Shown here one piece after another: positions 7,536 to 9,454 of a stretch of DNA of 64,000 bases; position 1 is the stretch's first letter; every line of letters starts with the position of its first letter. A program made the translations under genes and the position numbers. The DNA is from Candidatus Parcubacteria bacterium (GTDB lineage: Bacteria; Patescibacteriota; Patescibacteriia; Patescibacteriales; UBA12075): NCBI GenBank assembly GCA_963814275.1, contig CAWFCE010000001.1:387307-451306 (forward strand), given 5' to 3'. The notes under the pieces are model-generated. The model was given only the letters and a program-made list of their open reading frames with translations. It was not told the origin of the DNA and made no database searches.

Positions 7536-8915
7536 ATGGAAAATACGAAAACAGGAGTGATCAAAAAAATAATCGGGGCGGTCGTGGACATAGAATTCAC
7601 GGGTGAATTACCCGAGGTATATACTGCCCTGACCGCGGAGGTAGCCGGCCAAAAATTGGTATTCGAGACCCAGCAGCATATCGGCGGCAGCCAGGTGCGC
7701 GCAATCGCCATGGGTTCGACCGATGGACTCAAGCGCGGCGACCGCGTGGCCAATACCGGCGAAGGCATCAGCGTGCCGGTCGGTCAGAAAACGCTGGGTC
7801 GGATGTTCGATGTATTGGGAAATCCGATTGACGGCAAAGAAGCGCCCCAGACCGAGAAGAAGTACCCGATCCACCGGTCTGCTCCTTCCTTCATCGAACA
7901 GTCGACTAAAACCGAGATACTGGAAACCGGCATCAAGGTAATCGACCTGATCTGTCCGGTGGCCAAGGGCGGAAAGGTCGGCATGTTCGGCGGCGCCGGT
8001 GTCGGCAAGACTGTAGTAATCATGGAACTTATAAATAATATCGCCAAACAGCATGGCGGCTATAGCGTGTTCGCCGGTGTCGGCGAGCGCACCCGCGAGG
8101 GTAATGATCTTTACCACGAGATGAAAGACTCGGGTGTTCTGGACAAGGTCTCGATGGTATTCGGACAGATGAACGAACCGCCGGGCAACCGCGCGCGCGT
8201 CGGTCTTTCGGGGTTGTCGATCGCCGAGTATTTCCGCGACGAGGAAGGCCAGGACGTGCTGTTTTTTATCGATAATATATTCCGTTTTACCCAGGCAGGG
8301 AGCGAAGTATCCACTTTGCTTGGCCGCATGCCTTCAGCCGTCGGCTACCAGCCCACCCTGGCTACGGAGATGGGCGAACTGCAGGAACGGATCACTTCCA
8401 CCAGCAAGGGTTCGATCACGTCGTTTCAGGCCGTATATGTGCCGGCTGACGACCTGACCGATCCGGCGCCGGCTACTACCTTCGGGCATCTCGATTCTAC
8501 CATTGTGCTGGCCCGGTCCCTGACCGAACTCGGTATCTATCCGGCGGTCGATCCGCTTGATTCCTCGTCGATCATTCTTGACCCCAAAGTGGTCAGTGAC
8601 GAGCATTACAAGGTTGCCCGCGGCGTCCAGCAGGTATTACAGAGATATAAGGATCTCCAGGATATTATCGCCATCCTCGGTATGGAAGAATTGTCCGATG
8701 AGGACAAAATGACGGTTGCCCGCGCCCGCAAGGTCCAGCGCTTCCTTTCACAACCCTTTACCGTGGCAGAAACATTCACCGGCCAGCCCGGCCGTTATGT
8801 CAAACTGGAAGATACGATCAAGGGCTTCCAGGAGATTCTCGACGGCAAGCATGACGATAAGAATGAAGGCGACTTCTATATGAAGGGCGGGATAGAGGAA
8901 GTTAAGAAAGGTTAA
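7536..8915 (+). CDS. atpD: F0F1 ATP synthase subunit beta
   Basis: 459 aa. Walker [16 protein letters not shown]-like region MEELSDEDK. Confidence 0.97.
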
Positions 8916-8944
8916 GAGAAGTTGAGAGAGGTTAAGATGGGTTG
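8901..8944. repeat. Left arm of the 44-nt inverted repeat enclosing the four-helix-bundle gene
   Basis: Four 10-nt GTTAAGAGAG-type words plus GTTG. It pairs with 9411-9454 (5 mismatches in 44) and overlaps the last 15 nt of atpD. Confidence 0.8.
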
Positions 8945-8979
8945 AGAAGGGTTTTATTAGGTTTAATATAGTGATATTT

Positions 8980-9396
8980 ATGGACAAGGAGGCGCCATAC
9001 AAAAAATTGATTGTATGGAAAAACCTATGTGAACTTAGAAAGGAAATTTTTCTTGTTACCGAGAAACTCAATAAACCCGGCAATTACCGCCTGGTTGAGC
9101 AGATGAGAGCGGCAGCAAGATCAGCAAAACAAAACTTTGCTGAAGGATATAAGAAAGGACACATCGGTCATTTTATAAATTTTTGCGGGATTAGCAGGGC
9201 CTCACTTGAAGAGTTAGATGAAGATATTCAGGATTGCCATGAAGATAATTTAATTGAACAGAAAGATTATGAAACAATTAATTCTTTATGCAAAAGGACT
9301 ATGTATCTTTTGGATAAATATATAAAATCCTTACATTTAATGAAAGATAAGGGAACCTGGAAAAATAAACAAGATAGTTTTCACAATAAAAAATAA
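8980..9396 (+). CDS. Four-helix-bundle protein (23S rRNA intervening-sequence protein family)
   Basis: YKKLIVWKNLCELRKEIFLVTEKL...QMRAAARSAKQNFAEGY...SRASLEELDEDI matches the family pattern recalled from memory. ATG at 8980. Confidence 0.75.
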   Translation: MDKEAPYKKLIVWKNLCELRKEIFLVTEKLNKPGNYRLVEQMRAAARSAKQNFAEGYKKGHIGHFINFCGISRASLEELDEDIQDCHEDNLIEQKDYETINSLCKRTMYLLDKYIKSLHLMKDKGTWKNKQDSFHNKK

Positions 9397-9410
9397 AACA
9401 CAGAAGATAG

Positions 9411-9454
9411 CAACCCATCTTAACCTCTCTTAACTTATCTTAACCTATCTCAAC
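9411..9454. repeat. Right arm of the 44-nt inverted repeat enclosing the four-helix-bundle gene
   Basis: Its reverse complement aligns word-for-word with 8901-8944. It ends 6 nt before the atpC ATG. Confidence 0.8.

Follow-up and report, generated by a model that had tools for sequence, protein, structure and literature searches.

Why does a gene of the 23S rRNA intervening-sequence (IVS) protein family lie between two ATP-synthase genes, enclosed by long inverted repeats, and what are these repeats for? We analysed a 64,000-nt stretch of a Candidatus Parcubacteria genome (hereafter the window) in which this arrangement is found at the atpD-atpC junction. We conclude that the locus is probably a resident IVS-type hairpin cassette, in which an IVS-protein gene (IVP), with an array of five 10-nt words on one side and the inverted array on the other, is inserted between atpD and atpC of a patescibacterial ATP-synthase operon, a spacer that is normally very short.

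Layout of the atpD-atpC junction

The coordinates of all features are collected in Table 1. The cassette is co-directional with both neighbouring genes. Its left arm overlaps the final 15 nt of atpD, stop codon included, and its right arm ends 6 nt before the atpC ATG; on both points the original prediction was accurate. Word 1 and the beginning of word 2 of the left arm encode the end of AtpD, which reads V-K-K-G-stop here and EVKK[DQ]* in cassette-free relatives. Two more degenerate phased words, GGGTTTTATT and AGGTTTAATA, were found in the spacer between arm and ORF, making a total of seven phased GTT upstream of the IVP ORF; this ORF could alternatively start at a GTG (8971). In 200-nt windows the GC content of the cassette was 26-39%, against 53-62% in the atpD interior and 52-59% in the atpC interior.

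Table 1. Features of the cassette, its neighbours and other word hairpins
Feature	Position	Strand	Basis
atpD (F1 beta subunit)	7536..8915	+	TIGR01039 794 bits; Pfam ATP-synt_ab
Left (5') arm, five phased 10-nt words	8901..8944	+	Inverted-repeat scan; paired in MFE and centroid
Arm-to-ORF spacer	8945..8979	+	Sequence reading
IVP gene for a 138-aa protein (four-helix bundle) of the 23S rRNA IVS protein family	8980..9396	+	PF05635, TIGR02436
Right (3') arm, reverse complement of left arm	9411..9454	+	Inverted-repeat scan, fold
atpC (F1 epsilon subunit), downstream neighbour	9461..9892	+	TIGR01216 115.6 bits; PF02823 92.7 bits
ORF-less tandem-word hairpins in the window, examples	55214-55310; 29840-29893; 9902-9996		

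A domain search identified atpD, atpC and two Pro_CA_2 genes as the neighbours of the IVP gene. The IVP gene was the sole ORF of the cassette in this search, and no transposase domain was present. Reading of the flanks (8892-8900 and 9455-9463) gave no direct repeat abutting the arms that could be a target-site duplication. Only one copy of the cassette was found in the window. When the whole window was searched with Rfam at the gathering threshold, two tRNAs were the only matches and no rRNA was found. Around the cassette, matches at E <= 1 were limited to sub-threshold miRNA-precursor look-alikes on the adjacent 9900-9998 hairpin, and no known RNA family covered the arms. A weak promoter-like match (TTGAGA-16-TAATAT, 8942-8969) might produce IVP transcripts without the 5' arm, though the counts of promoter-like sites in the promoter/terminator scan were not above those in shuffles.

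The enclosed gene encodes an IVS protein

The family assignment made originally holds at the level of profile scores, a sequence match in the PDB and the predicted fold. The protein scored 79.7 bits against PF05635 (cutoff 33.8), covering profile positions 1-104 of 106, and 75.9 bits against TIGR02436 (cutoff 24), and phmmer matched it to PDB 2GSC with E = 9e-9. An AF2 model, built as a monomer, had a pLDDT of 90.1 and four helices (residues 11-28, 36-58, 62-88 and 94-124). Foldseek aligned this model with 2GSC (TM 0.93, rmsd 1.3) and 2RLD (TM 0.92). Taken together, AF2, Foldseek and phmmer give a four-helix-bundle fold like that of XCC0516 and BT_0352. Foldseek also matched Avd (4DWL) and the DGR ribonucleoprotein (8UBE) with target-normalised TM values of about 0.8, at a sequence identity between IVP and Avd of about 10%.

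Each of the homologues 2GSC, 2RLD and 4DWL has five chains in its PDB entry, and a pentamer of the IVS protein has been described (PMC4990558). In the available text of PMC4990558 and bioRxiv 10.1101/2024.02.27.582315 the PF05635 IVS protein is without known function. With pN at 0.11-0.26 and a saturated pS at 0.68-0.91, the sequences indicate that the IVP ORF is under strong purifying selection.

The arms are built of phased words and are predicted to fold into a long stem

The inverted-repeat scan returned two arms of 44 nt, 91% complementary and 466 nt apart. Forty of the 44 positions are Watson-Crick pairs, and in RNA one G:U brings this to 41. Direct comparison of the arms gave A:C, A:A, G:A and the one G:U, i.e. 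four mismatches rather than the five counted before. The arms consist of 10-nt words of the form GTTRAGANNN, with the GTT cores of the left arm at 8901, 8911, 8921, 8931 and 8941; the TAA/TGA triplets of its successive words close 3/3 reading frames. The GTTRAGANRRGTTRAGA pattern occurred seven times in the 64 kb, always within the two arms, where 0.02 occurrences were expected. Local alignment of the flanks scored 68, compared with 16.7 +/- 2.4 for shuffles (z = 21). When 8885-9475 was folded as RNA, the MFE and centroid predictions both contained the 44-bp stem (z = -7.75 vs shuffles). As in rRNA IVSs, terminal inverted repeats thus enclose the element as a long predicted stem; the site, at atpD-atpC, is not a helix of a 23S or 16S rRNA gene. 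The cassette is an IVS-type element outside rRNA.

The window has one further long-range inverted pair (24149-24177 / 24925-24953). It encloses nothing coherent and was set aside as probably due to chance, since its right arm lies within an ORF of 316 aa with a translation like that of methionyl-tRNA formyltransferase.

The cassette is shared by relatives and its stem is maintained

We found the cassette at the atpD-atpC junction in six Patescibacteria loci (the window, L002, L004/L005, L086, L087 and L166), and the orthologous copies come from JGI, NCBI and ENA samples. The original prediction would have been undermined by relatives that carry the gene at this junction without inverted repeats; these were looked for, and all six loci had flanking arms. 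IVP was sought by tblastn in 80 GTDB atp loci, a search that very distant IVPs would escape, and in the cassette-free relatives the atpD-atpC spacer was 15-36 nt long, without such a hairpin. The NJ tree of atpD grouped four of the five IVP-bearing sequences tested, with the fifth (L166) joining at the same node and the cassette-free relatives falling outside the IVP-bearing group. Other organisms also carry close relatives of the IVP at different sites (L003 and the P0010 locus).

Alignment of the stem across the six loci comprised 39 pairs, with 90.6% of cells paired. The five GTT/AAC cores were invariant and in register at 10-nt spacing in all six. Both sides had changed in a compensatory manner at 15 stem pairs, against 8.2 +/- 1.8 in shuffles (0/500 reached 15), the structure having been derived from the same six-sequence alignment on which it was tested. 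Slid controls gave only 2-5 stem pairs changed on both sides. These substitutions indicate that the stem is kept by compensatory changes. Judged from the alignments and the tree, the cassette at the atp junction is old, clade-inherited and maintained, and is not a fresh insertion.

Word arrays accompany IVP genes in unrelated operons

The survey of arrays covered about 64 non-redundant IVP loci. Around 50 IVP loci other than the present one, in unrelated operons, had inverted arrays whose words were of the same type (consensus AGGTTACNNN, with a period of 10). AGGTT, GGTTA and GTTAC were the top unbiased upstream k-mers, and 312 of about 480 core-to-core distances were 10 nt. Most often an arm had five words (range 1-15). 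The agreement of five words with a pentameric protein is suggestive only, given that range. The arrays were strand-specific. Arms paired better with their own partners (mean score 16.6) than with the arms of other loci (9.5), and the own partner was the best of 64 in 16 loci. The host operons are diverse, and the placement is precise: the median distance was 0.5 nt from the upstream stop to arm 1 and 13 nt from arm 2 to the downstream start. Neighbours were co-oriented with IVP in 53/60 cases upstream and 51/56 downstream.

Since the same word type and period flank IVP at many unrelated loci, the arms appear to travel with the gene. The cassette, arms included, is a member of a widespread family of the form (A-G-G-T-T-A/G-C/A-N-N-N)n - IVP - inverted copy. 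PDDEXK_3 also occurs as cargo, there with ACAGAA words. Significant arms were absent in about 12 of about 75 related loci, e.g. L167 in an acs operon, and are therefore not indispensable to the IVP gene. Rfam reported no rRNA or other RNA gene in 20 related loci that lacked clear arms or neighbours; among these 20, no member of this IVP subfamily lay inside rRNA. We did not find phased word arrays around IVP genes described in the literature that was searched, which consisted mostly of sources other than subscription journals.

Alternative readings of the arms

The arrays could instead act at the DNA level, as phased operator- or iteron-like binding sites for IVP or a host factor, with RNA pairing incidental. 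A conserved core and a variable 3-nt spacer, repeated at a constant 10 bp or nearly a full turn of B-DNA, are what such sites would look like, and the modal five words can be set beside the five-chain homologues, Avd among them. We nevertheless regard this as unlikely. Variable positions co-vary between the two arms, which argues that pairing itself is selected, and the base of the stem keeps to stop and start codons, a feature that belongs to the level of mRNA. In addition, arm mismatches on the sense strand favour the G:U type (80) over the A:C type (37; p = 9e-5). This excess is consistent with selection on RNA but is not proof of it, since a strand-biased C-to-T mutation on the sense strand could contribute or yield the same. 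The DNA-level and RNA-pairing readings are mutually compatible.

A different history was part of the original prediction, which saw an IVS-type cassette that had landed in the loop of a hairpin already present at atpD-atpC. The IVS-type character is borne out by the stem-plus-ORF layout, which matches that of ORF-containing 23S rRNA IVSs. The idea that an ORF-less word hairpin stood at the junction first, and received the IVP ORF in its loop only afterwards, we find distinctly improbable. It gains from the many other ORF-less tandem-word hairpins of the window, which likewise fill co-directional intergenic gaps (examples in Table 1). It gains also from four other contigs (L106, L130, L134 and L146), in which ORF-less hairpins of the same locus-specific words lie <=2.5 kb from the IVP cassette; in the three tested (L106, L130 and L146), the contig's own IVP arm was the best match among 69 for the ORF-less hairpin. 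However, the cassette-free junctions of relatives are short and contain no such hairpin, so that this part of the original proposal is not supported. The word core and 10-nt period are common to IVP cassettes at unrelated loci, whereas the window's other hairpins are built of unrelated 7-nt words, and no ORF-less hairpin of GTTAAGA words was found in the 64-kb window.

We also considered whether the stem acts as a terminator or attenuator and so determines the ratio of atpD to atpC expression, the enclosed ORF being irrelevant. Its position inside an operon whose subunits are needed at 3:1, and its conservation in six loci, would suit such a role, which we still judge very unlikely. An intrinsic terminator would be a short GC-rich stem with a T-tract; here the right arm is followed by CATAGTTATG with no T-tract, and the promoter/terminator scan called no terminator-like site at the arms. 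Moreover, the 466-nt loop encodes a protein under purifying selection, and the same design recurs in operons without such a stoichiometry issue. Finally, the reading of the arms as an assembly artefact, or as an inverted repeat due to chance or low complexity, beside an ordinary small gene is refuted, even though purine-rich repetitive words can inflate repeat scores and the window's other long-range pair is probably chance, by the shuffle statistics and word counts given above, by an identical cassette in an independent Logan assembly (L001) and by orthologous cassettes with compensatory changes from three sample sources.

Proposed mechanism and significance

We return to the preferred reading of a resident IVS-type hairpin cassette. 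In a read-through atp transcript the arms would pair into a stem of ~44 bp, which would return the atpD stop and the atpC start to proximity. This proximity may be what allows the operon to tolerate a 540-nt insert. Being long dsRNA, the stem would be expected to serve as an RNase III substrate, as in rRNA IVSs. A cut would free the loop that encodes IVP and part the atpD message from that of atpC; RNase III processing between atpD and atpC is plausible by analogy with those rRNA elements.

A conserved word core at a constant 10-nt phase exceeds what dsRNA needs, which implies a sequence-specific reader of the words. Possibly there is such an additional reader, with the pentameric IVP as the obvious candidate. 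We put forward with considerable doubt a broader version, in which IVP and phased 10-nt word hairpins would form a cognate protein-repeat partnership. A pentameric, Avd-fold IVP would read five GGUUAC-type words 10 nt apart, as RNA or ssDNA, and so control the formation, processing or spread of operon-spacer hairpins, the ORF-less hairpins being non-autonomous members. Its logic would be comparable to that of REPIN-RAYT or of TRAP binding its repeats.

PF05635 proteins are abundant among bacteria, and discussion of them has mostly treated them as an oddity of fragmented 23S rRNA. The window and ~70 related loci show that, outside rRNA, their gene has an RNA/DNA architecture that is conserved, specific to one strand and exactly placed, and that gene-less hairpins of the same words can accompany it. 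The annotation thereby becomes experimentally addressable, by way of the identity of the reader of GGTTAC words and of possible cleavage of the stem. If the IVP-word partnership were true, a 30-year-old orphan IVS protein would gain a ligand and a function, and a mechanistic link to the nucleic-acid role of Avd in retroelements. An insert able to fold itself aside may also account for the tolerance of selfish inserts within the essential operons of tiny, operon-dense genomes like those of Patescibacteria.

Comparison with known systems

Correia/NEMIS elements of Neisseria and ERIC are non-coding, about 100-160 bp long and flanked by target-site duplications. They sit in the intergenic spacers of operons and are co-transcribed as long hairpins that RNase III can process. 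The present cassette shares with them terminal inverted repeats inserted in operon spacers; unlike them, it carries a conserved protein gene, and no target duplication was found in its flanks.

REPIN-RAYT systems comprise REP hairpins and a cognate tnpA-REP gene encoding an HUH Y1 transposase, the repeat being a single palindrome. There, as here, a gene is flanked by inverted copies of a lineage-specific short repeat; the REP repeat also occurs as gene-less hairpins in the intergenic regions of the genome that carries the gene. IVP differs in being a PF05635 four-helix bundle without a known nuclease or transposase motif. Its repeats are tandem 10-nt words, and their dispersal was seen in the four related contigs only, not in the window.

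Avd (accessory variability determinant) is a pentamer and forms part of the DGR ribonucleoprotein together with a reverse transcriptase. It has the same four-helix-bundle fold as IVP. In contrast to a DGR, the listed surroundings of the cassette contain no reverse transcriptase, and no template or variable repeats lie near IVP, whose neighbours are atpD and atpC; the cassette is accordingly not assigned to the DGRs. Homology between Avd and PF05635 has been noted before (PMC10053308).

PF05635 genes have been noted between cas genes, e.g. cmr3/cmr2 (PMC3936711), and in 16S and 23S insertions of CPR bacteria (bioRxiv 10.1101/2024.02.27.582315). In the available text of both sources the presence of the gene is recorded, with no mention of phased arrays, stop/start placement or ORF-less cognate hairpins. 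The closest resemblance in layout is to the ORF-containing 23S IVSs of Coxiella burnetii, Leptospira, Brucella and Xanthomonas, in which a PF05635 (S23p/IVP) ORF of ~120-140 aa likewise lies within terminal inverted repeats in an element of 430-550 nt. The Coxiella IVS with its S23p ORF has a 28-bp terminal stem that is cleaved by RNase III in vitro, and tandem heptamers (GACAGAT) upstream of the ORF, which is reported to be decaying and probably untranslated (PMC4990558). The words at the present locus are 10-mers with an AGGTTAC-type core, not GACAGAT heptamers, and their ORF appears to be under purifying selection. Unlike the 23S IVSs, which lie in rRNA helix 25 or 45, the present cassette occupies an mRNA operon, where the base of its stem coincides with the stop and start codons of the genes on either side.

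An IVP gene enclosed by inverted word arrays between atpD and atpC

We used repeat finding, word counts and RNA folding to examine the atpD-atpC junction, and all three confirmed the predicted stem. The two arms are 91% complementary and 466 nt apart. The original prediction had counted five mismatches between them; we found four, one of which is G:U in RNA. The GTT cores of the 10-nt words in the left arm begin at 8901, 8911, 8921, 8931 and 8941. The word pattern has seven matches in the 64 kb, every one of them in the arms, against 0.02 expected, and the flank-to-flank alignment score lies 21 sd above shuffles. 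When 8885-9475 was folded, the 44-bp stem was present in both the MFE and centroid structures (z = -7.75). Word 1 and the start of word 2 encode the V-K-K-G of atpD and its TAA stop. GC content across the cassette is 26-39%, compared with 53-62% in the atpD interior and 52-59% in the atpC interior (200-nt windows). An independent Logan assembly (L001) carries the identical cassette.

Features of the atpD-atpC cassette and ORF-less hairpins in the window and in related contigs
Feature	Sequence	Position	Strand	Remarks
atpD	window	7536-8915	+	TIGR01039, 794 bits; 3' end within left arm
Left arm	window	8901-8944	+	44 nt; repeat finder and sequence
IVP ORF	window	8980-9396	+	PF05635, 79.7 bits; TIGR02436, 75.9 bits
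Right arm	window	9411-9454	+	44 nt; inverse of left-arm words
atpC	window	9461-9892	+	starts 6 nt past right arm
ORF-less tandem-word hairpins	window	1740-1869; 2824-2901; 3194-3265; 9902-9996; 13153-13232; 29840-29893; 52916-53026; 55214-55310
ORF-less 10-nt-word hairpin	L106	3658-3792
ORF-less 10-nt-word hairpin	L130	462-568
ORF-less 10-nt-word hairpins	L134	478-630; 2460-2600
ORF-less 10-nt-word hairpin	L146	4887-4975

The enclosed gene belongs to the four-helix-bundle family (IVP) to which it had been assigned, as both family models, a match to the solved protein XCC0516/2GSC (E = 9e-9) and a four-helix AlphaFold model (pLDDT 90, four long helices) agree. The model superposes on 2GSC (TM 0.93) and on 2RLD, a second solved structure of the family; Avd, the accessory protein of diversity-generating retroelements (DGRs), is more distant. 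Among the IVP genes resident in atp operons, pS was 0.68-0.91, so that synonymous sites are saturated, while pN was only 0.11-0.26; these values therefore show strong purifying selection on the protein. For the IVP of locus L086 (P0005, 1566-2006), some gene calls run the N-terminus through the word array (MEKVGKGWKRLEEVEIK...).

The same junction in relatives

IVP homologues with 66-83% identity occupy the same junction in five more loci (L002, L004 (=L005), L086, L087 and L166), found in other samples and all with arms. The nearest named relatives are Patescibacteria: an IVP relative (P0006) comes from a MAG named 'Patescibacteria group bacterium' at NCBI, and an atpD relative (L007) from a Candidatus Falkowbacteria MAG. 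No relative of the window IVP was detected in 80 GTDB genomes picked by atpD similarity. In an NJ tree of atpD that took in five IVP-bearing sequences, the window, L002, L004 and L086 clustered and L166 joined at the same node, with cassette-free relatives outside. A single old insertion, vertically inherited, would fit this pattern.

The original prediction had the cassette landing in the loop of a pre-existing hairpin. This part did not hold, as closer cassette-free relatives have just 15-36 nt between atpD and atpC; in L007, 3 nt separate the ...IEQVKKD* terminus from the ATG. The arms belong to the cassette itself, and the reading of an IVS-type cassette stands in kind. Since the native atpD tail at empty sites is EVKK[DQ]*, word 1 (GTTAAGAAAG) doubles as ancestral coding sequence. 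Across the six loci the tail varies along with word 1 (VKKG, VEKG, VKRG, VMKS, VAKG or, in L086, a truncation to ...GGIE* by the first word). The left array of L086 has grown to about 15 words, and its right arm still has 5-6.

Other structures were also seen at this junction. A close cassette-free relative (L006, 4359-4525) carries a gene-less hairpin built from ATTCGTAA-type words around a loop of 101 nt. Another patescibacterial genome (L026, 4473-5104) has a PDDEXK_3 gene here (PF13366, 86 bits), lying between inverted arrays (40 nt, 73%) of ACACAGAA-type words, i.e. the same design at the same site with other cargo and another word. Such structures seem to land or grow repeatedly at this junction. 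Immediately after atpC, the window has two adjoining Pro_CA_2 (putative carbonic anhydrase) paralogues (9950-10896), a pair kept in L002 and L004.

Pairing and core of the arms

The arms of the six atp loci align in register, with five invariant GTT/AAC cores spaced exactly 10 nt apart. In a 39-pair consensus stem, 90.6% of cells were paired. Both sides had changed in 15 pairs, against 8.2 +/- 1.8 in column shuffles (none of 500 reached 15) and 2-5 in slid controls; the test used the small alignment from which the consensus itself came, a bias in favour of the structure, though the margin is still large.

A metagenome scan with the IVP alignment yielded 80 more loci (39-68% identity), most with significant flanking inverted repeats. 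A motif-free count over 120 nt on either side of the gene, with the downstream stretch taken as its reverse complement, gave AGGTT, GGTTA and GTTAC as the commonest 5-mers, and the word consensus across loci is A-G-G-T-T-A-C-N-N-N. Of about 480 distances between successive GTT cores, 312 were 10 nt and 39 were 9 nt. Arms hold 1-15 phased words, with a mode of five in each. The arrays are strand-specific, at least three upstream GTTA being found on the sense strand in 37/64 loci and on the wrong strand in 3/64.

Arms paired better with their own partner than with those of other loci (mean score 16.6 vs 9.5), and in 16 loci the partner ranked first among the 64; the three variable nt of the word therefore change in step between the two arms, with a core that is common to the loci. 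Mismatches were more often of G:U type (80) than of A:C type (37; p = 9e-5), a spectrum consistent with pairing in the sense RNA, though strand-biased mutation could contribute. Because loci so diverged (synonymous sites are saturated already at 67-83% protein identity) keep a common non-coding core of 6-7 nt, comparison of the sequences implies a constraint on the sequence itself beyond pairing alone.

Placement in host operons

Most neighbouring ORFs run in the same direction as the IVP gene (53/60 upstream, 51/56 downstream). Measured from the upstream stop codon, the left arm begins at a median of 0.5 nt, and in 14/34 loci the two overlap; a median of 13 nt separates the end of the right arm from the downstream start codon. 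Two loci outside atp operons, L003 (ybaK-like/scpA context, IVP 74% identical to that of the window) and the P0010 locus (an unknown gene adjoining pheS, 71% identity over 70% of the query), lie within the range of sequences spanned by the atp-resident clade; at least one relocation of the cassette has therefore taken place. Other hosts were T2SS-F/pilin, queA/ispD, larC, a miaB-like gene, exosortase, radical-SAM/glycosyltransferase and Wzy. In the acetyl-CoA synthase operon of L167, the IVP gene has no arms.

Gene-less hairpins and other inserts

We scanned 0.94 Mb of collected DNA for phased arrays in sense orientation with phased antisense arrays after them. Apart from IVP cassettes, the scan detected hairpins with short loops (4-60 nt) in four contigs, including two near-identical ones 2 kb apart in L134. 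Their words are the very locus-specific variants that make up the IVP arms of that contig. Hairpins from three contigs (L106, L130, L146) were compared with the IVP arms of 69 loci, and each matched the arm of its own contig best, with a clear lead in L106 and L146. No such hairpin occurred in 560 kb of IVP-free atp loci, a comparison confounded by taxonomy.

Within the window there is no ORF-less hairpin with GTTAAGA words. It has several of other, mostly 7-nt, words, which differ per hairpin (TAGGCAA, CGAATGT, AGTAAGC, AACAGAT, AATAACC and others) and fill co-directional gaps from stop to start, several of them exactly. The one at 55214 begins on the upstream gene's TAG stop, and 7 nt separate the end of its stem from the next gene. 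In design these hairpins resemble the cassette minus its gene, and they may occur generally in the source genome. The arm at 3194-3265 consists of AACAGAT x5, a word similar to the GACAGAT heptamers reported to repeat ahead of the S23p ORF in the Coxiella 23S IVS (PMC4990558); the PDDEXK_3 gene of L026 is likewise flanked by ACAGAA-type words.

Further inserts were noted in the atp operons. L004 has a PDDEXK_3 gene between atpA and atpG (1421-1995) with weak CGCCAA/TTGGCG word arms, and a DUF559 gene between atpG and atpD (2991-3505) with a 25-nt palindrome, CCCCTTCTCCTTGTTAAGGAGAAGG, present three times in its flanks. The atpG-atpD spacer of the window (7010-7535; 525 nt, GC as low as 21%) has a purine-rich word run past atpG (GTGAATCGGGGAGCGGGGAGTGGAGATCGGAGAGCGTGAATCG) and small minus-strand ORFs (7103-7325) with no Pfam match, and may be a decayed insert. 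Elsewhere in the window (region 23722-24140), two partial copies of the 3' part of a minus-strand tRNA gene (23722-23793) lie in tandem after it, and a GC-rich palindromic block of 56 nt is fused to each copy (23868-23923, 24045-24100).

Proposed mechanism and comparison with known systems

The cassette would be transcribed by read-through from the atp operon, and its stem of about 44 bp would re-juxtapose the atpD stop and atpC start at about native spacing. The same insulating logic is found in rRNA IVSs, where a helix is extended without disturbing the ribosome. Long near-perfect dsRNA is a substrate of class-1 RNase III, and by analogy the 44-bp near-perfect stem is a predicted one. RNase III does not need the GGUUAC core, so the core and its 10-nt phase point to another reader; a pentameric, Avd-like IVP is a candidate, through putative binding of the words. 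RNase III cut the 28-bp stem that encloses the S23p ORF of the Coxiella IVS in vitro (PMC4990558).

The cassette is a conserved gene-in-hairpin, with selection on protein and on pairing, a core in fixed phase, stop/start placement and co-orientation. An intrinsic terminator was ruled out for the stem by a promoter/terminator scan. It is not a DGR module, having neither reverse transcriptase nor TR/VR pair, nor an IS or MITE in the strict sense, as there is no transposase and no target duplication. IVP genes have been reported between cas genes (PMC3936711) and in CPR rRNA insertions (bioRxiv 10.1101/2024.02.27.582315). In the literature searched there was no description of phased decamer arrays, stop/start placement or cognate gene-less hairpins around IVP genes; from a single locus, the comparison leads to a general and apparently undescribed architecture associated with an orphan protein family. 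Among known systems, the ORF-containing 23S rRNA IVS comes closest. As the window element does not lie in the location that defines an IVS, it is IVS-like rather than an IVS.
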